A stretch of DNA of 64,000 nt from an uncultured Verrucomicrobiae bacterium (GCA_963772365.1 CAVYXA010000006.1:32001-96000); one strand, 5' to 3'; counted from the first letter of the stretch, positions 9,908 to 61,231 are shown. Notes: generated from the letters alone by a model not told the origin. Numbers and translations are program-made.

Positions 9908-10339
9908 TTAAGAAACTGAGGCTGAAGCTGGTTTCTGTGCGCTGTGCGGGTGGGATTCGCCCCGGTAAACCTTTAGTTTACGATATACCGCGCGACCGAG
10001 CCGATTGTGCGGAATCATTCCGCGCACGGCCCGTTCGACCAGCAGTTCAGGATGTCTAGCACGCCGGGCCCGGACGTTTTCAGATTTATGTCCGCCCACG
10101 TATCCGGAAAAACTCATGTAGGTCTTTTGCTCTTCCTTCTTGCCCGTAACGCGCACCTTATCAGCGTTAATTACAATGACGAAATCGCCAGTATCGACGT
10201 GCGGGGTGAAGATTGGTTTGTTTTTCCCGCGCAATAAATTCGCCGCCTTGGCCGCAACTCGGCCCAGCACCTGGTCCTTCGCGTCAATGAGCCACCACTG
10301 ACGCTCGACGTCTTTAGCTTTGGCGGAGTAGGTCTTCAT
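9908..10339 (-). CDS. rplM: 50S ribosomal protein L13
   Basis: [36 protein letters not shown]. Confidence 0.99.
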
Positions 10340-10461
10340 TTCGGTCTGAAAAAGGGGACGGAAACTACCGGGCAGAGGCGGCGCTGTCAACTCACTGAGG
10401 CATAAACGTGCCCGGTTGTTATCGGATAAAGATGGCACCCGAGGTGCTTCTAGAAATTATA

Positions 10462-11124: not shown

Positions 11125-11218
11125 CTGCAAGCCAGTTACACCTTCAGAATTGTTAAGATCGCAACGGGCTGTCGATCTTGCGCTGTCGCCAAATCGGGAG
11201 CAAACATAGTCCTTCCCC

Positions 11219-31980: not shown

Positions 31981-32550
31981 CTACGGCGTGTTCTTTCGAA
32001 GCGTTTCTAACTTCGCTCGAATTGCCGATTTAAAATCCGCGAGGGACATCCCAGTTCCTGAAGTGGTGGGTTGTTCAGCCCGTCCGATCTGTGCCAGATC
32101 GACAACCGGCTTCCCGTCGTTTGTTCGGATGACTTCCTGCCCCGCCTGATCATGTTGCACACGAAAACGGCCATGCATGATGCCGACCAGCGGAATGAAT
32201 TGGCTACCGTTATTTTGCACGAAAACAACGTCTTGACCGCCAACGGCGAACTTGGGAGCATCGGCCACTTCCATCGTTTTGCCATCGACAGTTCCACCCA
32301 GCATCCGGATGGCGTACGATTGGCCCGGTATCCCCTTAACTGCGTCTTCCACCCTGAAAGTTACATACGTCACGATAGTTCGTTGGGCGCCTTCACCGAT
32401 CCATTGCGATTTGACGTTGGTAACTCGGCCTTGAAAGATGACGTCCGCCTCGTTAACGAGCTCGTCAAAACTCGGCGGAATCACGGTTGTCGCGCGATTG
32501 GCAATCAATGCCGGAAACAACAAAGCGATGCACAGGAGAGTTCTTTTCAT
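31981..32550 (-). CDS. Hypothetical secreted protein (TIMP/OB-like, ATTVIPPSFDELV type)
   Basis: Signal peptide, beta-rich ADVIFQGRV...FRVEDAVKG...GG pattern; directly downstream of the matrixin gene. Confidence 0.75.
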   Translation of the reverse strand: MKRTLLCIALLFPALIANRATTVIPPSFDELVNEADVIFQGRVTNVKSQWIGEGAQRTIVTYVTFRVEDAVKGIPGQSYAIRMLGGTVDGKTMEVADAPKFAVGGQDVVFVQNNGSQFIPLVGIMHGRFRVQHDQAGQEVIRTNDGKPVVDLAQIGRAEQPTTSGTGMSLADFKSAIRAKLETLRKNTP

Positions 32551-34244
32551 GAGGACTGGTAAATTGTCGATGGTACTAAATAATCGCGATCAGTAGTTTC
32601 CTGGTTTTCCGTTCCATGGTGCAATCTGCCGACCTGACATCTTGCAGCCGTTTCTCTCGCAACGGAAAATCGCTCAGCTTGCGCAACGAAACAGTCACCA
32701 CCCCGAAAAGGAAGCGTTACTGCGGAAGGAAAACGCCAAACCGGAAAGATCTCTGTCAAAAACAAACCTGTTAGTCGAGCTGCGGCGGGATCGACAACGC
32801 CATGGCGTGCCAAGGTCCAGCCGGATACCACCGTTGGACCCCACGCGCTACCGATAAAGACACGGTTGTTCAGATACCAGATCGCTGTCCCTCGGGTGCT
32901 TGGATTGTAGAGCAGGTAATCAGGTTTATCGTCGCCATTAAAATCGGCCACTCCTTTCAGCAGGTAACCGCTGGCGATCGTACAACCATATGCGCTGCGA
33001 AGATAGGTTACCCCCGACAAATACCAGATCGCGGTCTGTCTGGTGCTGCTGTTAACCAGCAGGTAATCTGGATTACCGTCTTGATCGAAGTCGGCCACGT
33101 TCACAAGGCTCCACCCGGCTACGGCGGTTGGGCCCCACGCGCTACCGATAAAGACATTGTTGTTCAAGTACCAGATCGCTGTCCATCGGGTGCTGGAGTT
33201 GTACAGGATATAATCTGGATGATTGTCGTGATTGATATCGCTCACGGCCGCCAATACGTAGCCGCTGGGCAGAGTTGGCCCGTAGGCAGTGCTGATGACC
33301 GCACTGTTTTCCAAGTACCAGATCGCCGTACGACGGGTGGCGGGATTAAAGAGCAGATAATCTGGCCAGCCGTCGCCATTGAAATCGGCCACATTGATGA
33401 TGTTCCAGCCGTAGGGAACATCGGTTCCATACGCACTTCCCGCATACGCACTGTTGTTCAGATACCAGATCGCGCTCTGACGCGTGCTGCCGTTGTAAAG
33501 GAGCAAATCCGGATGACCGTCCCGATTAAAATCTGCAAGCGCTAGAGAGGTTGAAATCGGCATTGGCAGCGGCGTCGGCCCCGGCGTAGCTGTCGGAGTC
33601 GGCAATGGCGCCCCGTACAAAAAATTGCGCACCCGAAATGTCGTCGCTGGCCAGTGTCTCGCGATTACTAGTTTCGGAATTCATGATTGCATCGACGTGC
33701 TGTCCGTGGTCGTCGGGATGATCGAGACCGATCGCGTGCCCAAGTTCATGCAGCAAAATTCGCCGGATGTCGCCGATTGCATATCCGCCATTGCCGTAAC
33801 GCAGCGGCCCACGATAGGAATCAAACTGTTGATGCTCATTAAAAAGAACATCGGCCTCGGTCATCGTCGATCCCGAGTACAGATCTCGGTCACGGCCAGA
33901 GTATGGGGCCCGAAACTTTGACCAAAAACTGTGCTGGCGAAAACAACCGAGTTGATTCCGTCTCCCGATGATACGCCAGTAGTCGGGCTCCTTGAAGTCA
34001 ACTGGGCCCGCTGAATCACTCGGTTCCACATGCCCAAAGCGGGCGCAGCAGCCGTGTCCCAGGATGTGTTGCCATCAATGAGCACCCTTCCAGCACTACC
34101 GAGACCGAGCTCGAAAATGACGGTCGAGCTATTCGGCCAGTGGGGCCCTTCCAAGGCGTAGGAGAGAAGAGAGAGCGGAATGAGCGAGAGCGCTCCGGCA
34201 ATCATCGTGCTGGCCAGCATTATGAGAGCTCTTTTGTGAGTCAT
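32547..34244 (-). CDS. Secreted matrixin-like zinc metalloprotease with PT linker and FG-GAP repeats (two frameshifts, probably sequencing errors)
   Basis: HELGHAIGLDH plus AIM Met-turn; about five DFNxDGxPD repeats; frames join with one base added at ~33880 and one A removed at 33619-33624; the true stop may lie nearer 32800. Confidence 0.8.
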
Positions 34245-34441
34245 GATCGCAAAAATGGGGTTGCTTGCATGCCGGGGAAGGAGTGCGTGAAAAACATAAA
34301 GCACGAACCGTACTGGGCTGTTTCTTTGCCACGCTTTTCCCAAAAAAACTACCGCCGCAATTCAAGCACGGGTCGCCCTGCTCCGCAAACATCTTTCAAG
34401 GCGTTTTCGTACGATATCTCTCAAACCGTTTGGATTTGAAG

Positions 34442-35081: not shown

Positions 35082-36125
35082 TTAGCCAATGAGCGCTGTG
35101 AGGTCTGTCACAAACTCGGAAATTTCCTCGTCAGTCGTCGCCCAGGAGCACATCAGCCGATAGATGTTTGGCTCCCCGAATTTATAAAAATGCCAGCCGC
35201 GCGTTTGAAGATTCTGCGCAAGTTTCTCTGGCAGCCGCAGGAAAACGGAATTCGCATCAACTGGGAACACGCTGCCGATCTTCGCTTGAGATCGCAACTC
35301 CCCAGCCAATCTACGAGCAGCCTCGTTCGCACGACGCGCGTTCCGCAGCCAAAGATTATCATTGAGCAGAGCGACCCATGGCGCAGCCAGGAAACGCATT
35401 TTCGATCCCAGTTGGCCACCTTGTTTCAGCCTGTAATCAAACTCGCGGGAAAGCTCGTTATAAAAAAAAATGACAAGCTCGCCGGAAGCCAATCCATTTT
35501 TCGTGCCGCCAAAACAGAGAACATCTACACCACTCTGCCAGCTGATCTCTTTTGGCGTACAGCCCAGCGAAGCGACCGCATTGGAAAAACGTGCCCCGTC
35601 CATGTGAAGCAGAAGCGATCGGCTGGATGCGAACTCGTGCAGCGTGCGAATTTCTTCGGGAGTGTAGACGGTGCCCAGCTCGGTCGCCTGGGTGATACTG
35701 AGGACACGCGGCTTCGGTGCGTGCAGTTCGGGTTGGCTCGTGATTGCCGCCTCAGCTGCGCCGATGTCGATCTTGCCATTCGCACCGCCTGTCAATAAGA
35801 GCTTCGATCCGGAAAAAAATTCCGGTGCACCGCACTCGTCTGTTTGGATATGTGCGCGTTCGTGGCACACAATGCTCTGAAATGGCTGGCAAAGATGGGC
35901 CAGGCTGAGCGCGTTGGCGGCTGTTCCATTGAAAGCGAGAAAGACCTGGCACTCCGTTTCGAAAATATCACGAACACGCCGCCTCAACTGTTTTGTCCAT
36001 TCGTCCTCGCCGTACGAAGGCGCTTCTCCGATGTTCGCTTCCTGAAGAGCAGCCAATGCTTCCGGACAGAACGGGGCTGTATTATCGCTGGCAAATTGAT
36101 GGTGCGGCGCAGCTAAGCTCATCAC
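35082..36125 (-). CDS. ltaE: Low-specificity L-threonine aldolase
   Basis: FASDN, NGTAAN, HIQTDECGAPE, HMDGARF, GGTKNG. Confidence 0.9.
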   Translation of the reverse strand: MMSLAAPHHQFASDNTAPFCPEALAALQEANIGEAPSYGEDEWTKQLRRRVRDIFETECQVFLAFNGTAANALSLAHLCQPFQSIVCHERAHIQTDECGAPEFFSGSKLLLTGGANGKIDIGAAEAAITSQPELHAPKPRVLSITQATELGTVYTPEEIRTLHEFASSRSLLLHMDGARFSNAVASLGCTPKEISWQSGVDVLCFGGTKNGLASGELVIFFYNELSREFDYRLKQGGQLGSKMRFLAAPWVALLNDNLWLRNARRANEAARRLAGELRSQAKIGSVFPVDANSVFLRLPEKLAQNLQTRGWHFYKFGEPNIYRLMCSWATTDEEISEFVTDLTALIG

Positions 36126-36387: not shown

Positions 36388-38184
36388 TCAAACCATATGG
36401 GCGCCGTCGGGTTCGTCGATCCTCGAGCGCACGATGCCACTGCGCCCAGAGCGCCGCAGGGCCTCGTTATCCTCGCGACTCGACCGAATGTGGCTAACTT
36501 CGGCAATGCGCAGAGTCGGATATTGACTATCGATCTTTCGTTCGATCCACCCTTCGTGGGCCATCACTTCCAGGGTTTGGAGAAGTCCTGCCCGGAGAAA
36601 ATCGGCGTTCTCCTGATCGTTTGGAGAGACGCGCGCGATTTTCTTCTCGATCGCCGCGACCATATCCGCAAGCGCCGAAGCCTGACGCAGCACCTCAATT
36701 ACGATCGCGAAGTTACCTGCAACCGGCAGGCGGCGACCGTCACGAACATAGCACGGAACTGCATGAATCCGTCCGTGACTTAGAAGTCCGACGCGCTCGG
36801 TTCTTGCGCCGCGCAGATCGAGTTTAAACACGTTGTAGCCGTCCACGAGCCAGGATGCTTTGCGTTTTTTGGGATCGAATAGCTCGATCACTTTTTTGGT
36901 TGAAGCGGGATCGAACGTGCCGGCCATCGCGATCGTGTCCGATTCAGTAGCGAATCCGCCCAAGCCCAGCCATGTCCAGGCGTTTTCCGGATCGAGATTG
37001 AGACCAGCGTCACGGGCGATTCGGGCACAATGATCTTTTAGATCCGTAAAGCAGCTGTTAGCTGCGTACCAGTATTGGGCGAATTGAATATGCTGACGGA
37101 TAGTGCCGCGCTGGCGCTGATCGTAACGTTGGCGTAACCAAGTAGGGTTGTGTTCGCCGCGGCGAAGTTCAAGAATTGTATAAGCGGCGTCGCGAGCGGA
37201 TTCATGCGCCAGCGTCATCCCGGCCGAGAGAATTGGATCCGCGAAACCGGCCGCTTCACCGCACAGGAACCAGTTTTCACCCACCGCGCGGTCAGCCAGG
37301 TGCGACCAGTCACGGCAAGTAGTGAGGCGGCCTTCGGCTCGAGCATGGCGCAGCAGGTTCCAAATCTGGGGCTGACGCTGAAGAGACTGATGATACAGCT
37401 CTTCGCTCGTTAGGCCAGTCTCCTTGTAATATTCGGCTGGCCAGACGACGCCGATACTCGTTCGGTCAGCTCCAATCGGGATAAACCAAATCCAGCCATA
37501 GGGAAGACTGCGCACCTGAATACGCGTGGCGCCGCCTTCCACTTCCACTGCCCAGTCGGCGCCCCGCCAGTAATCCCAGATCGCGATATTGCGCAATTCC
37601 AGATTTGGATCGATCCCGATTCCCAGCGCGCGGCGGAACAGGGCCATTGTTCCCGAGCCATCGATGTAATACTGCGCGGTTACGATTTCCCCGCTGCTAA
37701 GCTTCAGCCCTTCGATCCGGTCGCCGTTTACCAGCACTTCATCAACTCGGACGCCTTGCCGCACTTCGGCTCCACGCGATTGCGCATGGTCCAGGAGGAT
37801 CTTGTCATATCGCGAGCGGTCGACTTGGAACGCTGTCGATCTTCGCTGGCCCTCGAATTTTGCCGGCCGCGGTTCGGGCTGCCATTTTTCGATAGGATAA
37901 AAATTCAAATCCCAGCGATCACAGTCGCGACCCCAGGTATAAGAAGCTCCGATCTTGATCGGAAAATTAGCGGCTTCGACCGCATCCCAAACTTCCATTT
38001 CCTCGAGAATCAAACAGATCGGCAGAAGCATGCTTTCGCCGATGTGATCTCGCGGGAAAACTTCCTTTTCCAAAAGGAGAACGCGCAGGTCAGGCGAATA
38101 CTTTTTCAGCAGTATCGCGGCGGTGCTGCCGGCCGGGCCACCGCCGACGATTGCAACATCATATCCACCATCACTCGAATGCAT
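36388..38184 (-). CDS. Flavin-dependent halogenase-family protein, paralog 2
   Basis: GGGPAG, FPRDHIGES, FPIKIG (catalytic Lys position), WIWFIP, GEAAGFADPILSAG. Confidence 0.9.
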   Translation of the reverse strand: MHSSDGGYDVAIVGGGPAGSTAAILLKKYSPDLRVLLLEKEVFPRDHIGESMLLPICLILEEMEVWDAVEAANFPIKIGASYTWGRDCDRWDLNFYPIEKWQPEPRPAKFEGQRRSTAFQVDRSRYDKILLDHAQSRGAEVRQGVRVDEVLVNGDRIEGLKLSSGEIVTAQYYIDGSGTMALFRRALGIGIDPNLELRNIAIWDYWRGADWAVEVEGGATRIQVRSLPYGWIWFIPIGADRTSIGVVWPAEYYKETGLTSEELYHQSLQRQPQIWNLLRHARAEGRLTTCRDWSHLADRAVGENWFLCGEAAGFADPILSAGMTLAHESARDAAYTILELRRGEHNPTWLRQRYDQRQRGTIRQHIQFAQYWYAANSCFTDLKDHCARIARDAGLNLDPENAWTWLGLGGFATESDTIAMAGTFDPASTKKVIELFDPKKRKASWLVDGYNVFKLDLRGARTERVGLLSHGRIHAVPCYVRDGRRLPVAGNFAIVIEVLRQASALADMVAAIEKKIARVSPNDQENADFLRAGLLQTLEVMAHEGWIERKIDSQYPTLRIAEVSHIRSSREDNEALRRSGRSGIVRSRIDEPDGAHMV

Positions 38185-38220
38185 AACAAATCCGCTAAAG
38201 CGTGACCATGTTTCCGGCCG

Positions 38221-40015
38221 TCACGCTTGCGCGCTTTCCTCGTCGATCCTCGACCGCATGATGCTGCTACGGCCTACCCGCCGCAGGGCCTCGTTAGCGT
38301 CGCGGCTCAGGCGGATCTGCTGGACCTCGTTACCGACCCGCAAAGCTGGACGGCTGCCGTTACATTTTCGCTCGACCCAACCGTCCTGGGCCATCACTTC
38401 CAAGACCTGAAGATGTTGCGATCGCAGGAATTCACGGTTCTTCGGATCGGTGGCAGGAATATCGCCCAGAGTTTTGTCGATCAGACTCATCATTGTAGCA
38501 AAATCGGAGGTCTGCCGAAGCACTTCGATCATGCGCGCATAGAATCCGGCTACTGGCAGACGTCTACCATTGCGGACGTAGCAGGGAACCGCGTGGATAC
38601 GTCCGTGGCTGAGGATGCCAACGCGCTCTGTTTCGGCCCCACGTAAATCGAGTTTGAACACATTCTGCCTGTCGATCAGCCAAGTTGCCTTGCGTTGTTG
38701 GGTATCGAACAGTTCCAACAGTTTTTTGGCCGAAGCCGGATCGAGAGTGGCGGCCGATGCGATCATTTCCGATTCGCTGGTAAATCCACCCTGGCTCAGC
38801 CAGACCCAGGCTTGTTGCGGCTCGAGATTCAGACCAGCGTCGCGGGCGATATTCGCACAATGCTCCTTGAGTTCCGTGAAACAACTATTGGCCGCGTACC
38901 AGTACCTGGGCGAACTGAATGTGCTGCCGGATCGCGGAGCGCTGTTTTTGGCCGAAGCGTTGGCGAAGCCAGTCCACTTCATGCTCGCCGCGTCGGTATT
39001 CCAAGATCGTATAAGCGGCGTCTCGGGCTGACTGGTGAGCCAGGGTCATTCCGGCTGAAAGAATCGGATCTGCAAACCCAGCTGCCTCTCCGCAGAGAAA
39101 CCAGTTCTCGCCAATCACACGATCCGCCAGGTGCGACCAATCGCGGCAGGTAGTAACCTGGCTCTCCGGTTTCGCATGGCGTAACAATTTCCAAATATCA
39201 GGCTGTCGCTGGAGCGACTTATGGTACAACTCCTCGGCGCTGAGGCCCGCATCTTTGTAATATTCAGCCGGGCAGACGAGCCCGACGCTGGTTCGGTTCG
39301 AACCGAGAGGAATGAACCAAATCCAGCCGTAAGGCAAACTGCGAATCTGGATGCGCGTTACGCCGCTGCCGATCTCCACAGCCCACTCGGCATCGGACCA
39401 GTAGTCCCAGACTGCGATGTTGCGTAACTCCAGCTTTGCATCGATCCCGATATTCAAAGCGCGTCGGAACAGCGCCACCGTGCCGGACGCGTCGATGTAA
39501 TACTGTGCGACGACAGTCTCGCCGCTATTTAACTTCAGTCCCTCGATGCTGTCTCCACTAACGAGTACCTCGTCAACGCGCACGCCTTGTTTCACCTCGG
39601 CTCCGCTGGCCCGGGCGTGCTCAAGAAGGATTTTGTCGTACTTTGAACGATCCACCTGAAAGGCGGTTTGGCGGCGTTGCCCTTCAAACTTTGCCGGGCG
39701 CGGTTCGTCGCGCCATTTTTCAACCGGGTAAAAATCGAAGTCCCAACGATCATTGTTGCGACCCCACGTGTAAGAGGCGCCGATTTTGATGGGAAAGTCC
39801 GCTTCCTCGACCGCATCCCATACTTCCATTTCATCCAGGATCGGGCAGATCGGCGGCAGCATGCTCTCGCCGATGTGGTCGCGCGGAAAGGTTTCCTTTT
39901 CCAACACCAAGACGCGCAATTCTGGTGCGTATTTTTTCAAGAGCGTAGCAGCGGTGCTGCCGGCCGGTCCGCCACCGACGATCGCGACATCGTAGTTCCC
40001 GTTATCCGATGCCAT
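38221..40015 (-). CDS. Flavin-dependent halogenase-family protein, paralog 1 (one-base frameshift at 38905-38906)
   Basis: Same motifs as paralog 2; removing one C restores HIQFAQYWYAANSCF as in the paralog. Confidence 0.88.
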
Positions 40016-40071
40016 GGTGGGTTCCGAGCATACGCCAAATCGGTAAGACGTTAAATTGCTAAGTTGTCCGG

Positions 40072-42093
40072 CTAATCCGCGACTGGCTGTGGAGTTTTCA
40101 TTTCCATAAGGCGCGAAGCCTCCGCGCGATGTCGATCCGCCAGGTCGGAGCGGCCGATTCGGCCATACACCCGCGAAAGATATCGATGTGCCAGAATGAA
40201 ACCCGGGCGCATCCGAAGGGACATCTCAAAGGCTTGGACGGCGCGTTCGAACCAACCCATTCGGGAAAGCAAGGCGCCGAGTTGAAAATGCGCTTCGGGA
40301 AATTCATGGCGCAAACCCACAGCCAGCAAAGCGTGATCAATTCCCTGCTCGACAAAGTTTTGCCGTGGCAGCGCGACGCTCAACCCGTAGTGCGCATCGG
40401 GCAGATCAGGATCGACATCCAGTGCCCGCTTAAAGGCACGCCCGGCTTCGGGCCATTTGCGCTGACGCAGATAAAGCCTGCCGAGATAGGTCTGTGTGAT
40501 TGGGTCGTTAGGGGCGAGTCGTTCTGCTTCATGAAAAGCTTCGGCGCACGTTTTCATGTCTCCGCGTATCCAAGCCAGCACTCCGCGCATGGCGATGATT
40601 TGCGGCGCATCCGGCTGGATCCGTTCCAACGCGTCGAGCGCTCGGGCTACGTCCTTTGGCTTTTGAGCAGTCAGCGAAGCCTGGCCAAAAGCCATCCAAT
40701 AACGCGGCTGCGGCTCGTCGGGCTTTCGTGAGATCAGTTTCGCCAGCATCTCCCTACCTTCGTTTACGCGTCCTGTCTCACACAGACTGACCGCAACATT
40801 GAAATCACTTTCCGCTTCGGCCAGCTCAATTAGGCGGAGTGTGTCGTTGCTCGGCGCGTTAATGTAACCAAGCGCGATGAACTGTTGCAGCAAGGCTTGT
40901 GCAGCTGCTGGATCTTCGTGCTCACTGGAAATTGGAAGACGTCCATCGTTGCCGATTAGCTTTTCCCACGACGGAGTTCGCTGAATTGCCAGCGGCTGCT
41001 CAAAGGCGCTCACCAATGGTTTGCCTTCCATGTCTTCGCCAATGGGCAACCCCAGCAACGTGAGCACAGTGGGCGCAACATCGAGCAACGTTGCACCCTC
41101 AACTCTTTCGTCAGCGCGAATCCCGGGACCGCGCACCACTAAGATCCCCTGCGCCCGATGCCAGCTCGCTGGCTCCACTGGTCCGCGCGGCCGTCGCGGA
41201 CCGCTTTCAAAGCCGTGATCGGAGACCAGCATGACGTGTGTCTCCGGTCCGGCAAGTTCGACCAATCGGCCTAACATAAGATCGTGAAACCGATAAATCC
41301 CAGTCATCACCTCATGATAGAATTCAAAATCGCGCTCTGAAATCTCCGGCAAACGCGGAGGATGGAACGGCATGAATTCGTGCCCGACCTGATCGATGCA
41401 TTCATAATAGACCGCACCGAAATCCCATTTTTGTTTCTCCAGCAATTCCGTGGCGATAGCGTGAACGCTGATCACTTCGGCAAGATGCTGAGAAAGAAAA
41501 AGGAGCCGGCGTCGGACGATTGGATCGCTTTGATCCAATTCTGGGGCGCGTGGGATCAACTGTTGAATCGGCGCGGCTTCGATCTCCATCGGATGGACGC
41601 GAAGGTCTCCAAGACTTTCAGCAAGAGCGCCCGGTTCAGCACTGCCTTCAGGAATCGGCCATTTGTCTGGAGTAGAGTTAGGGGGCGGGAGGCAAAACAG
41701 ATTCGACACCATTGCACCGCGGATCGGCTCGGCCGGATGAGTGGCTTGCCAGGCGCAGACCACACTAGGGCGCTCCGATTGCGAAACAATGTTCCAGAGC
41801 GCCTTACACCGGCGAGTGCGAGTGCCAACCGGTCGCACGCCGGAGCGATCTGGTGACGGCTCAACGAACCACTTCACGCCATGGTCATAAATGCGTTTGC
41901 CTGTCGCAATGGTGGTCCACAGCACGGGCGAAAGCATCGGCGACAGCGATGCGAGATTGCCCATCACGCCGCCTTCGATCAATCCTCGAAGATTCGGCAT
42001 CAGCCCACTATCCAGTAGCGGATGGATGATTTGCCAGTCGGCCGCGTCCCAGCCAATGAGAAGGACGCGTGGTAATTTGGACGGCGAATTCAT
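40072..42093 (-). CDS. Alkaline-phosphatase-superfamily (phosphodiesterase/NPP-like) protein with C-terminal TPRs
   Basis: IGWDAADW, LSPVLWTTIATG, DQVGH, SDHGF, DVAPTVL, LGYI, then TPR repeats; no signal peptide evident. Confidence 0.88.
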   Translation of the reverse strand: MNSPSKLPRVLLIGWDAADWQIIHPLLDSGLMPNLRGLIEGGVMGNLASLSPMLSPVLWTTIATGKRIYDHGVKWFVEPSPDRSGVRPVGTRTRRCKALWNIVSQSERPSVVCAWQATHPAEPIRGAMVSNLFCLPPPNSTPDKWPIPEGSAEPGALAESLGDLRVHPMEIEAAPIQQLIPRAPELDQSDPIVRRRLLFLSQHLAEVISVHAIATELLEKQKWDFGAVYYECIDQVGHEFMPFHPPRLPEISERDFEFYHEVMTGIYRFHDLMLGRLVELAGPETHVMLVSDHGFESGPRRPRGPVEPASWHRAQGILVVRGPGIRADERVEGATLLDVAPTVLTLLGLPIGEDMEGKPLVSAFEQPLAIQRTPSWEKLIGNDGRLPISSEHEDPAAAQALLQQFIALGYINAPSNDTLRLIELAEAESDFNVAVSLCETGRVNEGREMLAKLISRKPDEPQPRYWMAFGQASLTAQKPKDVARALDALERIQPDAPQIIAMRGVLAWIRGDMKTCAEAFHEAERLAPNDPITQTYLGRLYLRQRKWPEAGRAFKRALDVDPDLPDAHYGLSVALPRQNFVEQGIDHALLAVGLRHEFPEAHFQLGALLSRMGWFERAVQAFEMSLRMRPGFILAHRYLSRVYGRIGRSDLADRHRAEASRLMEMKTPQPVAD

Positions 42094-42282
42094 CGTGAAA
42101 AACTGTCGATCTTAGCGGCGGTCCAAGATCGTCGCAAATTTCATAACTAAACCATCGGTGCGGATTGCCTAATTACTGTTGTAGTCGGCGCGCAACTCCC
42201 AGGAAACGGCAGATCGAGTCGAGCACAATCCATTCCGACTTACTCGCGATTACTTTTTTCCATTCCACCTGGCACCGTGATC

Positions 42283-44097
42283 CTATGGCTTCTTATTCTG
42301 AATTTCTGAGAGCGCCTGTCGGGCTGGCTCATAGTCGGGTGCGATTTTCTGAACCTGACGCAATTCGTTGACCGCGGCATCGATATCGCCGCGACCGGCG
42401 AGCGCAAGCGCGAGGTTGGTCCGGGCAACAATGCGCTTTGGGTCATTTCGCGTGATCGGCGCCAATTGATCAATAGCTTCGTTCCAACGGCGAAGGTTCA
42501 CCAATGCTGTACCGTAGTTGATATGCGCAGCCGTGTTCCCGGGTTCCAGCGTAACGGCGCGCTCGAAATATTCCGCGGCGTCTTGGTAATCGTGAGCCAT
42601 CAACTCGATCGATCCCATACTGTTGTAGGCTTCCGACGAAGCCGGGTTTACTCGCACGGCTCGTTTCAATTCCGCCATTGCTTCTGCATAGCGCCCTTTT
42701 TGGATGAGAACATTCGCGATGTTTTCATGAACTTTAATTTTCGCATAGGCCGGTCGCTCCGCCGCCGCTTGTCGATAAAGCTCAAGCGAGCCATTCAAAT
42801 CTCCTTCCTTTTCTAAAACGTTTCCGAGATCCTGCTCCGCCAGGAAATTGCCGGTCGTGACCTGGACAGCATGAGCAAATAACGCATGACTGTTCCGCCA
42901 ATAAGAGGCCTGAACGGCTGTCATCGCGGTGAGCAGAACGATCACAATGCCGGCGAGAACTGCAATCCCTCGCGGGAAACGCTCGAGGCCACTCCGCGGA
43001 ATACTCCAGACCAATGCAATGAATATTCCAATCGAGGAAAAATACATGTATCGATCAGCAATCGATTGCCATCCGACATGGACCAATCCAATTACCGGGA
43101 CCAAACTGCCCACAAACCATAACCAGCCAATCAGCAGCCACGGACGCGATCGTCGATACATCATTGCTACTGCCGTGACGGCTCCGAGAAAAATTCCGCT
43201 TAGGACTACTTGAAGTATTGGCCAGTGAATTGGGTGAGGATAAAAAAATGCAAGATTTACGGGCGCGAATAATTTGCCGATGTAACGGGTGTAGGCGACG
43301 ACGGCATTCTCGATCCGCGCTGGAAACGGGAAAGTTGTGTATCCGCTAGTGCTCCAGATTGTGCGTTGTGAGAGTGCGCCGAAAATGGCGAAGGCAACGG
43401 ATAGAAACAACCAGGGGAGTTTTTCGAGAACAAGTCCTCCAAGAATGGCTCTATGAGCTCTGGTTGCTGATCGCTGATCTCCTAGTCTCCCCAGTGGCCA
43501 TACGTCCATCAGTATAAAAATAAACGGCAAGACGATGACGGTTGATTTTGTCATTAGGCCGAGAATGAACAGGGCCGTCACCAGCAAATAGCGCGAGAAC
43601 GAGCGCTGGCGCGAATAGCCGACATAAGTCCAGAGCGCCAGCAGTGCGAAAAATGTGCTGAGGAGATCCGTGCGGTCGGAGATCCAGGCTACCGATTCCG
43701 CGTGGAGCGGATGGATGGCAAAAAGCGCAGCCACAAGCGCGCTTCGCCAGATGGTCCCGGTGGCGCGCAGGAGGATTGCAGACAACAGCGCAGTGTTGGC
43801 CACATGGAAGAGCACATTGGTAAAGTGATGACCGCCGGCGTGCATTGCCCAAATTTGGATATCGAGCATGTGCGACAGCCAAGTCAGGGGGTGCCAGTAT
43901 CCGCATTGGAATGTGGTAAATGCCCAGATAACTCCGGACCAACTTAGCCCAGCCTGTAAATGCGCATTCTGAACCACGTTGCTGGGGTCGTCCCAATTCA
44001 CGAATTCGAATCGGAGCGTTTGCAAGTAGGGTAGTACGGCAAGAAGCGCCAGCAATCCCGCTGCGAGAATCGTCCGTTGGCTTCTTGCCCCAGTCAT
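42283..44097 (-). CDS. TMTC-like GT-C membrane glycosyltransferase with C-terminal TPRs
   Basis: FVNWDD loop, WHPLTWLS, HPLHAESVAWISDR, ADRYMY, W.NS..LF and TPR tail. Confidence 0.85.
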   Translation of the reverse strand: MTGARSQRTILAAGLLALLAVLPYLQTLRFEFVNWDDPSNVVQNAHLQAGLSWSGVIWAFTTFQCGYWHPLTWLSHMLDIQIWAMHAGGHHFTNVLFHVANTALLSAILLRATGTIWRSALVAALFAIHPLHAESVAWISDRTDLLSTFFALLALWTYVGYSRQRSFSRYLLVTALFILGLMTKSTVIVLPFIFILMDVWPLGRLGDQRSATRAHRAILGGLVLEKLPWLFLSVAFAIFGALSQRTIWSTSGYTTFPFPARIENAVVAYTRYIGKLFAPVNLAFFYPHPIHWPILQVVLSGIFLGAVTAVAMMYRRSRPWLLIGWLWFVGSLVPVIGLVHVGWQSIADRYMYFSSIGIFIALVWSIPRSGLERFPRGIAVLAGIVIVLLTAMTAVQASYWRNSHALFAHAVQVTTGNFLAEQDLGNVLEKEGDLNGSLELYRQAAAERPAYAKIKVHENIANVLIQKGRYAEAMAELKRAVRVNPASSEAYNSMGSIELMAHDYQDAAEYFERAVTLEPGNTAAHINYGTALVNLRRWNEAIDQLAPITRNDPKRIVARTNLALALAGRGDIDAAVNELRQVQKIAPDYEPARQALSEIQNKKP

Positions 44098-44241
44098 CGC
44101 TCGCCGTGGACTGTCGATCCTACGACAGGCGGCGGCAACCCCCATCGATGGAACTCGAGCTACGTATGAGCCCTCCTGATTCATGACTGTTTCGCGTCAA
44201 AGGCCAACATCAGTTGTCATTGAATACCCGTGTACAGCAGA

Positions 44242-44271
44242 AGCCCGCGCGAACTTACATTCGCGCGGGCT
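44242..44271. terminator. 12-bp GC-rich hairpin after the PEP-CTERM gene, weak U tract
   Basis: agcccgcgcgaa-cttaca-ttcgcgcgggct. Confidence 0.7.
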
Positions 44272-44296
44272 CTTAGAGAAACAAACAACCCCGTTA

Positions 44297-44974
44297 TTAC
44301 GCGGATTTGCGCTTGCGCCAGGCGCGCACGCCCATTGCGCCAAGGCCCATCACACTGAGAAGCGCCAGGGTTGACGGCTCTGGAATGATGCAAGCCTGAA
44401 CGGGATTACCCATATCATCATAGGCGTAATCCACGATCATCCGCGGCTGCCCAGCATAGGTTGAGGAGAGTGAGACTCGTGCCCACCCGTAGTCGTATGC
44501 CTGAGTGGATTCGTTGAAGAACCGGAAGCCGAAACAGTTGTTACTGCTGTTGAGAACAAAAGCAGTGGGCCCACTGGTTTCTACAGAACTATCAGTTCGG
44601 CCATAGTTCCAGGAACCATCGATTATCGTTCCGACCGGAAGGTTATCGACTAAACCAGCCGCGCCTCCGGTAAAGTTGTCGAGCACCCCATCGCTAGGGC
44701 TGGCAGAATTATTTCCCCAGATTTCGAAGCCCGAACTGCTCCAAGGATTGAGATCCCAACCGGGCACACTGGACGGACTGGTCGCGAATACGCCAGTAAC
44801 TACGTTCAGGTAGACACCGGAAGTCGTGCTTGGGATGTTGATGTTGACGATGCCGCTATAAACGAGGCTGGCGTTAGCGACAGCGGGAGCGGCAAGGGTT
44901 GCGCCGGCAAGCGCCGCATATGCAGCGAGGCGGCCATCAATATGTGAGGTTAATTTTTGATTTCGTGGGCTCAT
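44297..44974 (-). CDS. PEP-CTERM sorting-domain surface protein
   Basis: AGGAG RBS, signal peptide ending ANA, C-terminal IPEPSTLALL-TM-RKRK. Confidence 0.93.
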   Translation of the reverse strand: MSPRNQKLTSHIDGRLAAYAALAGATLAAPAVANASLVYSGIVNINIPSTTSGVYLNVVTGVFATSPSSVPGWDLNPWSSSGFEIWGNNSASPSDGVLDNFTGGAAGLVDNLPVGTIIDGSWNYGRTDSSVETSGPTAFVLNSSNNCFGFRFFNESTQAYDYGWARVSLSSTYAGQPRMIVDYAYDDMGNPVQACIIPEPSTLALLSVMGLGAMGVRAWRKRKSA

Positions 44975-45000
44975 ATTGTTTCTCCTATTATGGTTGGGCA

Positions 45001-45033
45001 TCCGTTTTGATAAGTTTTGGGGAAAAGGTCAAG
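45001..45033 (-). promoter_or_regulatory. Putative promoter of PEP-CTERM gene 2
   Basis: Minus strand CTTGACCTTTT-N8-CTTATCAAAACGGA; 25 of 33 positions identical to 45740-45772. Confidence 0.65.
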
Positions 45034-45083
45034 ATTATTTTTGTTTTTTTACTGGACCAACGCGTTCAAAAGCGCGCTTGGAT

Positions 45084-45713
45084 TTAGCGAGCGCGTCGAC
45101 GAGCAACACTGATTAGGCCCAAAACGCCCAATCCAAGCAACGCGATCGTAGATGGTTCCGGAACCACATCATAATAGACAGTCCCATTCCATACACGCGG
45201 CGAGAAAACCGGGAGCGTAAACGGCACGTTGGTGGCAGATCCCAGCGAAAGCGACAGGTCCGCATTAGAATAGTTTTGATTCGATCCAGTGCCATTGGTG
45301 TAGTAGTGGCTAAATGAGGGATCGGCTACCAGCGCGATTCCATTAATGCCTGGGTTTAGAATGAACGAGTTTGATAAGGTCACATGGGTTGGCAGGTCGA
45401 GGCCCGCTCCCGTTCCACTACCGGTGGCCACCATACTCCAAAGCGCACTTGTTTCGTTTCCTTGCGAGGTCATTCCGGTAAGGACCCACACTTGAACGTT
45501 GCTAAATGCAGATGTGGATGAGGTGTTGAGATCAAATGACGTTATGGAAAGCGGATTCGCCCCAATGGTAGCATCGAAATAAACAGCGCCACCCGGGCTA
45601 CCATTGTTATTTGAACCGTACAACGTTGTTAAGGAGTTGGCTTTTGCAGACGCCATCGCCAGCAGCGAGATGGTTCCAAGAGTGAGAATCAGGGTTAATT
45701 TTTTCAGGTTCAT
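45084..45713 (-). CDS. PEP-CTERM sorting-domain surface protein, Ser/Thr/Asn-rich
   Basis: AGGAG RBS, signal peptide ending AKA, C-terminal VPEPSTIALL-TM-RRRAR. Confidence 0.93.
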   Translation of the reverse strand: MNLKKLTLILTLGTISLLAMASAKANSLTTLYGSNNNGSPGGAVYFDATIGANPLSITSFDLNTSSTSAFSNVQVWVLTGMTSQGNETSALWSMVATGSGTGAGLDLPTHVTLSNSFILNPGINGIALVADPSFSHYYTNGTGSNQNYSNADLSLSLGSATNVPFTLPVFSPRVWNGTVYYDVVPEPSTIALLGLGVLGLISVARRRAR

Positions 45714-45739
45714 ATCTTCTCCTTTTCCGAGGTTTCGCG

Positions 45740-45772
45740 TCCGTTTTGATAAATTCCATCCAAAATGTCAAG
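45740..45772 (-). promoter_or_regulatory. Putative promoter of PEP-CTERM gene 1
   Basis: Minus strand CTTGACATTTT-N8-TTTATCAAAACGGA with a perfect TTGACA. Confidence 0.65.
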
Positions 45773-45855: not shown

Positions 45856-48800
45856 GTGGATTCGCTTCAAGCCGACATCGAGCGCCGCGGCCGACGCATT
45901 TTCGAGTTGGTGGATCGACATCCCGAATCGCTTTTTAGCAAGGCGGGTTTCTATCAGCGGCTCATGGCGTTTTCGATGCGCGATGAAAAATTCAAGGTGC
46001 AGTTGTTTCGCTTTGTCGACGTGCTCGCTTCGCTCCGGCGCTCGAGCGATATCATTGAGCATCTCGACGAGTACTTCGCTCCAGCCCGGTTGGGACGTAA
46101 CGGTCTCGGACCGCTGATTCAAACCGGTACCCGCGCGGCCAAAATCCTTCCCTGGGTAAGCGCAAAAGTCCTGAGCTGGAATGTCTCCGGTATGGCGCGG
46201 CAATTCATCGCCGGGAAAAATCCCGAGGATGTCATCAAAACGCTGCGCAAAACGGCGCGATCAAAAAATCGGATTCACTGTCGATCTTCTGGGCGAAGCG
46301 GTATTGAGCGAAAAAGAAGCCAATGAATATGCGGCACGTTGTGTCGATCTTCTTGAAGTTCTCGCCCGTGAAACCCGCGGTTGGAACGATCCACTGGGTC
46401 AAAACAGCGAACTCTTCCCGGTGGTAAATCTTTCCGTAAAAATATCCGCGCTCTATTCGCAAATGAATCCGGCCGATCCGGCCGATGCAATCGCGCATCT
46501 CGCATTGAAATTGCGCCCGATCCTGAGTCGAGCCCGCGAGCTCGGCGCGTTTGTTAACTTCGACATGGAGAGCTTTTCTCACAAACAGGTCACGCTCGAC
46601 TTTTTCAAAACGCTGCTCACTGAGAAGGAATTCAAAGATTGGCCAAACGCGGGAATCGTGATCCAGGCTTACTTGCGTGACTCCGAACGCGATCTTGTCG
46701 ATCTAATTCGTTGGGGCCGCGACCGCGGAACTCGCTTCGCCGTTCGGCTCGTCAAAGGCGCGTATTGGGACTACGAAAAGATTAAATCGGAACAGGACGG
46801 CTGGGAACCGCCCGTGTTTCTCCAAAAACCGGAGAGCGACGCCAATTTTGAACGGCTCTCCTGGATTATGCTCGAGAACGAATCGATTGTGACGTCGGCG
46901 TTCGGTTCGCACAACGTCCGTAGCATTGCCCACGCGATGGCCGCAGCGGATGAGCTCGGAATTGATCGCAGCCGGTTCGAGTTTCAATTGCTCTATGGCA
47001 TGGGCGGCCCGATCAAACGCGCCCTGGTCGAGCTAGGCTATCGCGTTCGTGAATATTGTCCCGTTGGCGAGTTGCTTCCAGGCATGTCCTATTTCGTTCG
47101 ACGCCTGCTTGAGAACACTTCCAACGAAGGATTCCTTCGGGCAAAGTTCGCAGAAAACATTTCCGAACAACAACTCCTCCGCGACCCGAATGCGATTTTG
47201 CGCAACAACGGAGATGGATCGCGTCCCTTTTCGAATTCCACTACCTCTATGAAAACAGCCACACAAGATCGACATCGAACGGACAATATCTCCCGGGGAA
47301 CTCCGCCGGGCGATACATACGAAAACGCGCCCCTGACCAATTTCGCGCTGCCCGAGAACCAGGAGAAAATGCGGGCAGCATTGCACGATATGCGCGAAAA
47401 ACTCGGGCGAAAGGTTTCCCTCACGATCAATGGCGAGAAGGTCTGGTCCGACCATACGATCAAATCAGTTAATCCGAGCGACCCCGATCAGATCGTCGGA
47501 CACGCAGCTGAAGCCGGAATCCCGGAAGCGGAGCGCGCCGTTGCGGCTGCGCGTGCGGCGTTCAAAAAATGGAGTCGCACACCATTTGAAGAGCGCGCCC
47601 AATTGCTCGAACGCGTGGGCGAAATTCTCGAGCGGCGCCGGTTCGAGCTTTCCGCGCTCGAAGTCTTTGAAGTGGGCAAGCCATGGATCGAAGCCGACGG
47701 CGATATTCGCGAGGCGATCGATTTCTGTCTCTTCTATGCGCAACAGATGCGATTGATCGGCCGCCCGCGTCTGACTCAACGCGTGCCCGGCGAAGTGAGT
47801 TACCAGCATTACTGGCCGCGTGGCGTCGCGCTCGTGATCGCGCCGTGGAATTTTCCGATGGCGATTCTTTGCGGGATGGTGAGCGCGGCGATCGTCACGG
47901 GAAACACCGTGATAATGAAACCATCCGAACAATCGGTTATCATCGGCGCGATGCTGATGGAAATTTACGAAGAAGCCGGAGTGCCGCCTGGCGTTTTAAA
48001 TTTCATTAACGGCAAAGGCTCAGTCGTCGGTGCACACATGGTCGATCATAAAGATGTCGATCTTATTGCCTTTACCGGCTCGCGCGAAGTTGGTCTGCGA
48101 ATTTGGGAGAGCGCCGGCAAAACCCGGGAAGGCCAGCGGGAGCTCAAGCATGTCATTTGTGAGATGGGCGGCAAAAACGCGATGATTGTCGATGCCGATG
48201 CAGATCTTGACGAAGCCATTACGGATTCGATCTATTCGGCATTCGGTTTTCAGGGACAAAAATGTTCCGCTTTGTCGCGATTGATCGTTCTGGAAGAAAA
48301 CTACGATCGCTTCATCGAGCGATTACTAGGCGCAGCCGGAAGTTTGCGCCTCGGCAATCCGGAGGAACCGGGCATCCTCGTCGGTCCGGTTATCGATGAA
48401 GCCGCCTACCGGCGCATCCTGGAGTACATCGAGATCGGCAAAAGCGAAGCGACTCTAGCCTATCAAATGAAGAATACGCCGCCAAAAGGCTACTTCATTC
48501 CGCCGACGATCTTCACCGACGTCAAGCCGAGCATGCGGATCGCTCGGGAAGAGATCTTCGGCCCCGTTCTGAGCGTGATCAAAGTGCGCGATCTTGACGA
48601 AGCCATCGAGGTCGCGAACGGCACCGATTACGCGTTAACCGGCGGCTTTTTCTCGCGCAGCCCGGCGAATATCGAGCGGATCAAAGCGCAGCTCGAGGCC
48701 GGCAATATCTATATTAATAGAAGCTGCACCGGCGCCGTTGTTGGACGGCATCCCTTTGGTGGATTCAAAATGAGCGGCGGCGGCACCAAAGCTGGCGGCC

Positions 48801-48919
48801 CTGATTACTTGTTGCAGTTTGTCGTCCCGCGCGTGGTCTGCGAAAACATCGTGCGCCACGGCTTCGCTCCTGAAGAAACGCCGCAATTCCGCGACGAGTT
48901 TTTCTGGCCGATTCGCTGA
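45856..48919 (+). CDS. putA: Bifunctional proline dehydrogenase/P5C dehydrogenase (one-base frameshift at 46249-46252)
   Basis: FRFVDVL, VDLLGE, RLVKGAYW, RRLLEN; ALDH motifs PWNFP, FTGS, EMGGKN, GQKCSA, EEIFGP; removing one A gives LRKRRDQKIG. Confidence 0.93.
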
Positions 48920-59629: not shown

Positions 59630-61189
59630 TTATTTTGCGAGAACAGCCGGAAGTCCGTCACGCGATGGGTGAGTTTCCGCGGCAGAATGCATTGAGATCT
59701 GCCGGCGCGGTTTTAGCATCAGCCAAAGATTGATCAGCTCACATTTCCACCAGCGCCGGAGACCTTTGGCGAATTGCTTGCAGACGCGCAGCTCGGGGAC
59801 GAATCCCGGAAAATATTCCGACCAACCCGAGTTCCGGCGTCCGAAATATCCGGCAAGCCACCGCCGATTCGCCAGCGCGGCGAGGCGACGGTTATAAAAA
59901 CTCATGATTTTCGACGCAATCCAGCCTCCCCAACCTGTGAACGGCAGATGGAGAAATGCGCAGTTTGGGTCGCGATAGGCCGATGTCACCAGGCCCAAAT
60001 AATATGCGCTCACATCGAGCAGCAGCGCTGCCGACATCAAATCCGCGTCGCCCATATAATAATACTTGTCCTTGTAGAGACTCTCGAACCAGCGGCGATA
60101 CGTCACCGGGAATTGCTCGTTGTAATGGCGAAGCCGGTCTGCAATATCTTCGCCATTCAAATCTTTCACCAGAAAATCGGCGACGTAAAAGGAAGTGTAG
60201 GAACATAAATCCAGTCCCGGACTGTAAAGAGGATCGATAAATCCGGTCGCGTCCCCGACCGCCGCCCAACCCTTGCCGCAAACCGTTTCGCTGTGATATG
60301 GCAACATCGAAAGCGCGCGGATATCGCCTTCGATCGGGCGTGCTTCCCCAAAAAATTCCCGACCGACCGGGTGACCGATGATATGCGCCTGCAACCGCTC
60401 GCTCAGTTTTGCGCCTTCCGGCAGTTTGAACAAGCGGCTATCATAAACGATTCCCGCGCTCACATCGCCGCCTTGCAGCGGAATGATCCAGACCCACCAA
60501 CCGCGACCGAACAAATGATTGGTAGCCCACTCCCGACTCGCGATGCAGCGCTTCGCATATCGGGGAAAACGTTCGCTCGTTTCGTAGCCATCCCATTGTT
60601 TCACGCCAGTGAAGCGGGCCCAGACTGCATTGATCGGATGCTCGGTGTTGGGACGGAAATAACCTAGCTTGCGCGAGATTATCGCAGCCCGGCCGGTGGC
60701 ATCGACGATCCAGCGTGAAGTTACAGTGCGTTCGGCATCATCGACAACGGCAGTCACGTTTTGGCCTTTCGCGCCATTCAATTCAAACGCGGTTACTTTC
60801 GCAGCTCGCCACACTTCGCATCCGGCTTGGGCAGCTAGGTCCAGCAAATGGGAATCGAGCTTGGCCCGATCAATCTGGAAGCCCGGCATGCGGCTGTGAT
60901 AAAACGCGCCGATCTCCGTGCAATCCTCGAAAGATTGTTCCGGCCCGTTGGAAAACCAGAGGCGCAATCCCTGTTTCACCAATTGGTGGTGACCGAGATA
61001 ATGCGTTAGACCGAGAATTCGCGTAAGATAACCACTGCTCACTTCCGTGGTGGATTCGCCCACTTTTCGGTCGAACTGCGTCGTCTTTTCAATGATCAGC
61101 ACGCGCGCCTCCGGGCTTTTACGCTTCAGATTGAGAGCCGTCGCCGCGCCGGAAAACGCCCCACCGATGATCACAACATCATAGTTCAT
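59630..61189 (-). CDS. FAD-dependent oxidoreductase of the halogenase family
   Basis: GGAFSG, KVGES, LVKQG, WVWIIP, GDATGFIDPLYSPG. Confidence 0.85.
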   Translation of the reverse strand: MNYDVVIIGGAFSGAATALNLKRKSPEARVLIIEKTTQFDRKVGESTTEVSSGYLTRILGLTHYLGHHQLVKQGLRLWFSNGPEQSFEDCTEIGAFYHSRMPGFQIDRAKLDSHLLDLAAQAGCEVWRAAKVTAFELNGAKGQNVTAVVDDAERTVTSRWIVDATGRAAIISRKLGYFRPNTEHPINAVWARFTGVKQWDGYETSERFPRYAKRCIASREWATNHLFGRGWWVWIIPLQGGDVSAGIVYDSRLFKLPEGAKLSERLQAHIIGHPVGREFFGEARPIEGDIRALSMLPYHSETVCGKGWAAVGDATGFIDPLYSPGLDLCSYTSFYVADFLVKDLNGEDIADRLRHYNEQFPVTYRRWFESLYKDKYYYMGDADLMSAALLLDVSAYYLGLVTSAYRDPNCAFLHLPFTGWGGWIASKIMSFYNRRLAALANRRWLAGYFGRRNSGWSEYFPGFVPELRVCKQFAKGLRRWWKCELINLWLMLKPRRQISMHSAAETHPSRDGLPAVLAK

Positions 61190-61231
61190 CGCCGCAGCTA
61201 ACAGGATGGACTCGGGAGGCGCTAAAGGCAA

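Follow-up and report, generated by a model that had tools for sequence, protein, structure and literature searches.

We analyzed a 64,000-nucleotide stretch of DNA from an uncultured Verrucomicrobiae bacterium (the window, G000:C6:32001-96000), which belongs to a 3.35 Mb genome assembled in six contigs and 90% complete. Between ltaE (35082-36125, PF01212) and putA (PF01619 and PF00171) lie six genes, all co-oriented on the minus strand. They encode two PEP-CTERM proteins (PEP1 and PEP2), a TMTC-like membrane protein, a phosphodiesterase with tetratricopeptide repeats (TPRs), and two members of a flavin-dependent halogenase family, halA and halB (Table 1). Gene calls and Pfam matches agree with this layout, which had originally been read from the sequence by a model. 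That original prediction had also noted that no gene for a nonribosomal peptide synthetase, polyketide synthase, or carrier protein lies nearby, and indeed none of these families was seen among the 16 + 31 open reading frames (ORFs) of the window that were scanned; the genome's five matches to the carrier family PF00550 are on contigs C1 and C2, none on the contig of the cassette. The proposal developed here is that the two flavin enzymes halogenate tryptophans of the PEP2 precursor in the cytoplasm, in the setting of a variable gene cassette, and we consider the case for it evenly balanced. Handles beginning with G, C, and L denote genomes, contigs, and loci, respectively.

Table 1. Features between ltaE and putA, in window coordinates
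Feature	Position	Strand	Basis
Promoter-like motif TTGAC-N15-TATCAAAA, before PEP1	45744..45772	-	2 window matches, 0 in 100 shuffles
PEP1, 209-aa PEP-CTERM protein, ordinary signal peptide	45084..45713	-	PF07589 30 bits; TIGR02595 25.8 bits
Promoter-like motif, second copy, before PEP2	45005..45033	-	Same motif search
PEP2, PEP-CTERM protein, probable start 44974, 225 aa	44297..45001	-	TIGR02595 21.6 bits
13-pair hairpin after PEP2, terminator- or stabiliser-like	44241..44271	-	z -2.7; 2/200 shuffles fold as well
TMTC-like GT-C membrane protein with C-terminal TPRs, variable cassette member	42283..44184	-	Look-alikes, motifs, TPR matches
Phosphodiesterase-TPR, alkaline-phosphatase superfamily (PF01663) with C-terminal TPRs	40072..42093	-	PF01663 82.9 bits vs cut-off 23
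halA, flavin-dependent halogenase-family gene, frameshifted near 38905	38221..40015	-	PF04820 above cut-off; intact orthologues
halB, intact 598-aa flavin-dependent halogenase-family protein	36388..38184	-	PF04820 above cut-off; motifs; model
halB C-terminal winged helix, residues 440-565	36490..36867	-	Strands then three helices; model pLDDT 93.2 alone

The twin halogenases of the original prediction stand as far as family is concerned, whereas the upstream copy, halA, is split by a frameshift. halB contains GxGxxG, Lys77 within FPIKIG, and WxWxIP at residues 231-236. GxGxxG binds FAD, the lysine of FxxKxG is catalytic, and WxWxIP is a halogenase motif. All three were found by pattern in 89 of 89 full-length family sequences, and Lys77, W231, W233, I235, and P236 are invariant in 80 of 80 aligned relatives, with Lys77 aligning to the lysine of FPKKFG in PltA and FPIKRG in CndH. 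Judged by their sequences, these relatives are an unnamed family with all halogenase motifs; in the source annotations they appear as NAD(P)/FAD-dependent oxidoreductase, flavin-dependent dehydrogenase, or tryptophan 7-halogenase, and the closest of them carry the labels Chthoniobacterales and Verrucomicrobiae. The closest solved enzymes by sequence are FasV, PltA, Mpy16, CmlS, ChlB4, and CndH, with matches of halB to halogenases reaching E 1e-53, as compared with E 3e-08 for QhpG and E 1e-4 for MibH. A structural model of halB (pLDDT 92.6) best matches CndH (Z 42.7), FasV (Z 40.1), Bmp2, RadH, and CmlS (Z 37.5), and the best Foldseek match is CmlS at E 1e-33. In NCBIfam, the best matches of the halogenases include the models for QhpG and LodB, and the equivalog scores for QhpG (NF049967, 135.5 of 240 bits) and CmlS (NF033113, 181.5 of 900 bits) are below cut-off. 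A third, distant halogenase-like flavoprotein is encoded elsewhere in the window (59633-61231, minus strand; 25% identity to halB, PF04820 E 7e-19), adjoining genes for a GT4 glycosyltransferase and a prepilin peptidase.

The winged-helix-like halogenase tail that had been predicted is present in the model. Among the top halogenase-like structures, only CmlS (8-564, Z 37.5) and QhpG (4-548, Z 32.6) cover this C-terminal domain. When the domain was compared alone, 10 of the 11 best structure rows were recognition proteins for peptides made on the ribosome and modified after translation (RiPPs) or for the peptide of pyrroloquinoline quinone (PQQ), at Z 6.9-5.2: a lasso-peptide B1 protein, PKMT2, TbtB, MibB, TbiB1, MccB, ThcOx, PqqD twice, MadB, and TigE make up the 11, and the best is 6jx3_B (Z 6.9, rmsd 3.0, 83 aligned residues). 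The domain resembles RiPP recognition elements as well as the C-terminal domains of CmlS and QhpG. By sequence it matched no Pfam or NCBIfam family, including the PqqD Pfam family at E 2; its profile found nothing under E 1 in the PDB, and its atlas matches were all under 0.8.

Both PEP-CTERM proteins exceed the cut-off of 16 bits for TIGR02595, the sorting tail made of a C-terminal PEP motif, a hydrophobic helix, and a basic end. As had been predicted, they are rich in Ser and Thr (25.8% and 21.0% of the mature parts of PEP1 and PEP2) and contain Trp (3 and 5) and Tyr (7 and 8). The genome has four matches to the exosortase family PF09721 above cut-off. With their length, signal peptide, and sorting tail, these proteins differ from classical RiPP precursors, which are short, consist of a leader and a core, and yield a small product; among the halogenase loci, a short peptide occurs in the cyanobacterial branch only. 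PEP1 is an accessory member, with a cassette copy in only one relative (72% identical; L002/L232, same genome). PEP2 belongs to an unnamed family with 362 relatives, of which 93 of 120 have an RLxxYxxxAGA-type leader pattern, and Trp73, Trp78, and Trp86 are conserved in it; a search of the PDB with the PEP2 profile gave no credible match. Trp78 is kept in all halogenase-linked copies of PEP2 and is Tyr or Phe in distant relatives. We considered Trp78 as a signature of the halogenase and rejected it, since unlinked close relatives have this residue too.

The phosphodiesterase-TPR protein was correctly identified from the sequence and fits the NPP-type alkaline-phosphatase superfamily: in addition to its Pfam score, the site residues D16, S55, D234, H238, D292, H293, and H312 are kept in 29 of 29 relatives, and from family motifs we take these seven to be two-metal ligands and a Ser/Thr nucleophile. 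It has no hydrophobic segment and is predicted to be cytoplasmic; like halA and halB, it lacks export signals. All five paralogues in this genome are near a PEP-type gene, four of them directly and the window copy across the TMTC-like gene. Across the order, a PEP2-family gene was detected by profile in 18 of 29 best-hit loci, and the remaining loci include two with variants recognized by eye, two cut by a contig end, and five distant copies beside another gene type. A sulfotransferase, a related standalone domain, adjoins one phosphodiesterase-TPR copy. Some phosphodiesterase-TPR genes also adjoin very small ORFs that encode little beyond a PEP-CTERM-like tail (L172:1170-1415, L173:189-398, L188:3902-4096).

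The TMTC-like protein has the expected build, a GT-C-type membrane domain with DD and its partner motifs followed by TPRs. The motifs DD, YWHP, KST, DVW, and DRYMY are at 64, 96, 211, 226, and 376, a crude scan found at least seven hydrophobic segments, and the feature look-alikes were PMT_2 clusters (0.98) and a eukaryotic DUF1736 cluster (0.92). The membrane domain had no Pfam match, including DUF1736 (PF08409) at E 5, and mannose transfer is a prediction from sequence. The GT-C motif set of TMTC proteins is described, and uncharacterised prokaryotic homologues are mentioned, in PMC7801869. The gene occurs in 38 of 121 genomes of the order. A general link between TMTC-like and PEP-CTERM genes was tried as an explanation and rejected, as a PEP-CTERM tail was nearby in 2 of 29 loci of the order, where the downstream flank was short. 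Within the cassette, the gene recurs among PEP2 genes (G305, G328, G334, G346, G357, G257). In G305, a genome of the same genus, the halogenase-less cassette also contains a gene for a small GT2-type glycosyltransferase, assigned to that family by inspection (L226:8631-9320), which is a possible source of the lipid-sugar donor for the TMTC-like enzyme.

Among 150 genomes of the same family, 9 have a halogenase and 19 a PEP2 relative. All 9 halogenase genomes hold PEP2, with the genes 0.4-4.5 kb apart in 8 of them and the ninth (G366) cut by a contig end, and the phosphodiesterase-TPR gene (AP) adjoins the halogenase in the loci inspected. The order PEP2-AP-halA-halB recurs at the ltaE-putA site in G054 and G357, and the cassette lies beside ftsK in G257, G273, and G302. 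G350 has three halogenases, in G302 the halogenase faces PEP2 directly at 0.4 kb, and G305 has the order TMTC-PEP2-GT2-type gene-AP-ltaE. When 300 genomes were drawn from the order, a halogenase was found in 4, all within this family. In a tree of 179 sequences (FastTree, midpoint root), the halogenases of this lineage form one clade (support 1.0) nested with moderate support (0.75-0.82) among Phycisphaerales sequences, and halA and halB are separate orthologue groups. By gene content, the locus is best described as a variable cassette and not as one conserved six-gene unit, with PEP2 and the phosphodiesterase-TPR gene as the lineage core and the halogenases as an optional add-on. The single six-gene system of the original prediction is not supported by this comparison: the TMTC-like gene is linked in 2 of 29 loci, PEP1 is in one relative's cassette, and 10 of the 19 PEP2-bearing genomes of the family have no halogenase.

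The six genes are probably not a single transcript, because a promoter-like motif precedes each PEP-CTERM gene and a hairpin follows PEP2. The motif has three matches genome-wide, each preceding a PEP-CTERM gene; a scan for sigma-70 promoters and terminators gave nothing above shuffles. As we read it, this arrangement would give much structural protein and less enzyme. halA is split over two ORFs (38885-40015 and 38221-38982) and, compared with intact orthologues, has one extra base near 38905. Five orthologue loci (L001, L002, L003, L162, L163) hold the gene whole, with 85-88% identity across the N-terminal 370 aa. This frameshift is likely an assembly error, because putA is also split and the five orthologues are intact; among 40 binned conserved loci, two frames were found for halA, for putA, and for a single query at one further locus. 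putA itself (45856-48919, plus strand) is divided into two ORFs, likely by an assembly indel. A matrixin/FG-GAP secreted protein (32547-34343, minus strand) is in three pieces, likely through assembly indels as well, and a RES-domain protein, a type typical of toxin-antitoxin pairs, is encoded at 3637-4137 (minus strand).

We then have the neighbours of the halogenase family in other genomes. Relatives numbered 208 in species genomes and 598 in roughly half of the metagenome collection, which as a whole was estimated to contain about 1,200 stretches with a family member. From each set the best 80 were sampled (73 and 79 loci, respectively), together with four family regions, for a total of 156 loci; expected counts came from the loci's own far flanks (at least 3 kb away), and six borderline PEP-CTERM tails were included manually. 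The 1 kb on either side of the halogenase contained 22 PEP-CTERM genes against 5.6 expected, 28 prepilin-type genes against 3.8 expected, and 15 short HTW-repeat peptides against none in the far flanks, although these enrichments overstate significance since kin are not independent. Recurrent linkage, on which the original prediction had staked its case, is thus found for the phosphodiesterase-TPR gene (18/29 and 5/5) and for the halogenases (22 vs 5.6), and fails for the TMTC-like gene (2/29). The named prepilin-type loci are from Armatimonadota. In loci of this type (L035, L039, L045, L051, L060, L064, and others), one halogenase clade lies beside prepilin-type genes and LacI/GntR regulators; the prepilins have N-methyl and H-X9-DG-like features, and no shared motif was found among them. 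The prepilin association is one of adjacency, because Trp content is alike near the halogenase (2.7%, n = 35) and far from it (3.0%, n = 16). In three Phycisphaerae loci, an exosortase-family gene immediately precedes the halogenase on its upstream side (L018:3475-4643, L027:8600-9800, L022). Genes for TPR-sulfotransferases, another possible protein-modifying enzyme, adjoin family halogenases in L006, L010, L060, L083, and L152.

The PEP-type neighbours are largely members of one P-domain-like family with a Trp motif, which accounts for 17 of the 23 PEP-type proteins found within 1 kb, vs 1 of 15 at 3 kb or more. These exported proteins have a proprotein-convertase-P-like domain (PF01483 in L036 and L041) and the motif HTWxGD, SWASD, or a near variant, and they flank halogenase relatives in Planctomycetota, cyanobacteria, and Pseudomonadota. 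When 18 hand-picked members (16 adjacent to a halogenase and 2 further away) were aligned, the mean column identity was 30% and the only invariant positions were one Gly, the motif Trp, and the PEP proline. Five genomes picked for having a P-domain neighbour contain six PF01483 matches in total. Five of these adjoin a halogenase; in the remaining one, Tyr replaces the Trp. In 121 genomes of the order Phycisphaerales, the halogenase is present in 27 and the P-domain family in 55; the family was found in 22 of the 27 halogenase genomes vs 33 of the 94 others, and within 1.4 kb of the enzyme in 8 of the 27. These close pairs are often arrays around the halogenase, and two of the 8 had contributed to the profile. 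In four Phycisphaerales loci (L269, L270, L271, L277 in G749, G754, G739, G764), two to five P-domain PEP-CTERM genes flank the halogenase. The idea that PEP2 is itself a P-domain protein was rejected, as the two match only in the sorting tail. No P-domain or HTW gene was found in five halogenase-bearing genomes of the window's family, and no PEP-CTERM protein of the window's genome scores with the motif profile.

Cyanobacteria present the motif in another form. Ten of 301 cyanobacterial genomes have a family halogenase, and in nine of them (all but G412), which overlap partly with the genomes of the earlier loci, an AetD homologue (E 1e-50) is followed by a repeat peptide of 60-113 residues and then by the halogenase. 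The repeat unit, seen in Microcoleus/Calothrix/Anabaena, is LDI(A/S)HTWTEN in tandem. The 58 repeat units vary mostly at synonymous positions, and the peptide is therefore under selection as a protein. When a profile of the repeat unit only was run against 4,644 ORFs, halogenase-adjacent P-domain proteins took 9 of the 13 highest ranks. In the tree, a single clade (21 sequences, FastTree support 1.0) unites the cyanobacterial halogenases linked to the peptide with those linked to P-domain proteins. The simplest reading of these sequences would be that the family enzyme reads the Trp motif and modifies its Trp. Co-folding of the L073 halogenase with repeat-peptide residues 15-60 and FAD gave a score of 0.01, which is no evidence either way. 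In L073 the three-gene cluster spans 8646-11695, and the repeat peptide has its own ribosome-binding site; similar clusters are present in 14 loci (L048, L053, L054, L056-L059, L061, L068, L069, L098, L104, L105, L126) and also in L257-L264. Its gene content suggests a pathway not described before, either of RiPP type or making halo-indoles on a peptide scaffold.

Based on these linkages, we judge it quite probable that the halogenase family acts on ribosomally made sequences and not on free small molecules. The window's PEP-CTERM proteins have no such Trp motif, and no P-domain gene was found in five halogenase-bearing genomes of its family, so if the enzymes act on proteins, their substrate here has changed. 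PEP2 is the best candidate, because it is linked in 8 of 8 assessable loci and Trp73, Trp78, and Trp86 are conserved, although these residues are also kept in close relatives that lack the linkage. Given a family that acts on ribosomal sequences, it is likely, though less so than that premise, that the substrate in this lineage is the PEP2 family, perhaps held by its leader on the phosphodiesterase-TPR protein. For the window's own PEP-CTERM proteins, where linkage provides the evidence, the chances of their being the substrate may be about equal either way.

The putative mechanism would proceed as follows. Because the halogenases and the phosphodiesterase have no export signals, they would meet PEP2 before Sec export, and halogenation of its Trp residues would occur while PEP2 is still an unfolded cytoplasmic precursor. 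The special leader of PEP2 could be held on the phosphodiesterase-TPR protein encoded next to the halogenases, an arrangement for which QhpD and QhpG acting together on QhpC would be a precedent. Cl or Br would be added through the conserved Lys, and halA and halB may serve different sites or positions. Once PEP2 has been exported by Sec, its Ser/Thr residues may be glycosylated by the TMTC-like protein, and an exosortase would anchor it; this is the weakest step. A wider reading, which we offer tentatively and rate slightly below an even chance, is that bacteria of at least five phyla have a dedicated, motif-reading halogenase that chlorinates or brominates Trp of their own surface proteins before export. 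Within it, a leader-guided line in the window's lineage may combine the halogenase, the phosphodiesterase-TPR enzyme, and the glycosyltransferase on exosortase-anchored proteins, and cyanobacteria, with an AetD-like enzyme, may have turned the target motif into a tandem-repeat ribosomal scaffold for halogenated indoles.

Several observations weigh against halogenation of PEP2, and some of them favor other explanations. The first alternative, which we regard as unlikely, is that the true substrate of the halogenases is a small molecule, free or carrier-bound, and that their genes are passengers in a hypervariable cassette of surface genes, with the neighbouring proteins left unmodified. The closest solved relatives, FasV, PltA, Mpy16, CmlS, ChlB4, and CndH, are enzymes of small-molecule pathways. 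Of the 115 loci with 1 kb on both sides, 60 lack all three neighbour types (PEP-CTERM, prepilin, and HTW) over that distance. Many of these 60 are plain housekeeping contexts, and a few have exosortase genes (L018, L027), prepilin genes that escaped the pattern (L070, L071), secreted proteins with dockerins (L010, L083), or an autotransporter with a P-domain (L041). AetD acts on free halogenated tryptophan, and its homologue is present in the cyanobacterial loci. Gene content at the ltaE-putA site varies freely, and PEP2 and PEP1 lack the family's Trp motif, ranking 1720 and 785 of 4,644 with the repeat profile and 1440 and 2837 of 4,823 with the variant motif profile. This explanation leaves unaccounted for one neighbour family with an invariant Trp in at least three phyla and a tandem-motif peptide beside the enzyme in 9 of the 9 non-Dapis cyanobacterial genomes found, and the contig has neither a carrier-protein gene nor other pathway genes.

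The winged-helix domain also has to be read with care. On the model, its relation to RiPP recognition elements is resemblance and not membership, because all winged-helix matches are at Z < 8, Foldseek gave none under E 0.001 (TbiB1 E 0.07), and a similar C-terminal domain occurs in CmlS and in the carbamoyltransferases GdmN and NovN, which are small-molecule-pathway enzymes. The motif Trp is common in genomes without the enzyme (13/19, vs 20/22 with a halogenase; p 0.12), and PEP2 persists in the 10 halogenase-less family genomes, including that of the same-genus G305, with Trp78 kept there too. The frameshift in halA and the lack of resemblance between PEP2 and the P-domain family outside the sorting tail count on the same side. 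No PF01613 flavin reductase was found in the 90% complete genome or in the cassette; two PF03358 reductases are encoded elsewhere.

A second and less probable alternative is that the family does halogenate proteins, with the window copies acting in trans on a different exported protein, or broadly on many precursors, and PEP2 belonging only to the phosphodiesterase-TPR enzyme. It is the phosphodiesterase-TPR gene and not PEP2 that adjoins the halogenases in most loci, and PEP2 has no relation to the P-domain family. Many halogenases of Phycisphaerales are solitary, with P-domain genes located elsewhere in the genome, and ChlH shows that promiscuity is possible in such enzymes (10.1101/2025.01.12.632611). 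What speaks against action in trans is the failure, described above, to find a motif-bearing partner in the window's family or genome, as well as the direct pairing of halogenase and PEP2 in G302. The least probable alternative, that the enzymes modify protein Trp by hydroxylation or oxidation without halogen, as in QhpG, LodB, and GoxB, draws on the two-domain build and WxW channel shared with QhpG, the NCBIfam matches, and the failure to find a PF01613 reductase, and it is improbable given a QhpG score that falls well short of the cut-off (135 of 240 bits), a halogenase lysine motif invariant in 80/80, and much stronger matches to halogenases than to QhpG.

A family that halogenates surface proteins, if confirmed, would matter for several reasons. 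Known peptide halogenases decorate precursors of small natural products, and halogenated structural surface proteins would be a new kind of bacterial protein modification. Some of the many PEP-CTERM and prepilin-like proteins that still lack an explanation would gain their first function, a biological origin could be named for organohalogens of soil and water, and proteins could be halogenated at chosen sites with an enzyme guided by sequence. The literature searched, which covered few subscription papers, contained no description of this halogenase family, its linkages, or halogenation of bacterial surface proteins.

Finally, the locus can be compared with known systems. The accompanying enzymes have partial counterparts: eukaryotic TMTC1-4 O-mannosyltransferases (PMC7801869) share the GT-C-type membrane domain followed by TPRs and the DD and counterpart motifs, whereas the window protein has no DUF1736 match and its relatives are mostly not beside PEP-CTERM genes. 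The aetokthonotoxin enzymes (AetD, PDB 8JI2/8TWN) compare with the cyanobacterial branch only, where an AetD homologue is beside the halogenase, but there the clusters have a Trp-repeat peptide between the two genes. The halogenases themselves are closest in fold and sequence to CmlS, CndH, PltA, and FasV (PDB 3I3L, 3E1T, 5DBJ, 8ZOP; E 1e-53 to 1e-35), and CmlS also has the C-terminal winged helix; identity is 23-32%, however, and the window is without such pathway genes. QhpG is a peptidyl-Trp dihydroxylase with the halogenase fold; forming a complex with another enzyme, it modifies a Trp of a cytoplasmic protein before that protein is exported (PMC7876137). Its structure (PDB 7CTQ) has the halogenase fold and the C-terminal winged helix and aligns with the halB model over 4-548. 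It differs in hydroxylating its substrate to build a cofactor and is only ~20% identical to halB, while the window enzymes keep the halogenase lysine motif and have surface proteins, not a dehydrogenase subunit, as neighbours. The chemistry proposed for the window is analogous to that of MibH, SrpI, and ChlH, which perform flavin-dependent, sequence-motif-guided Trp halogenation in ribosomal peptides (10.1101/2025.01.12.632611; PMC12537861). Their natural substrates are precursors of small products, whereas the candidates here are full-size exosortase-sorted or pilin-like proteins, and the window enzyme is of the PltA/CndH/CmlS branch, with a weak match to MibH. By analogy, then, the halogenases would work like MibH, SrpI, and ChlH and are built like QhpG and CmlS, yet they are outside the equivalog families of both, in a locus that is not a classical RiPP cluster.

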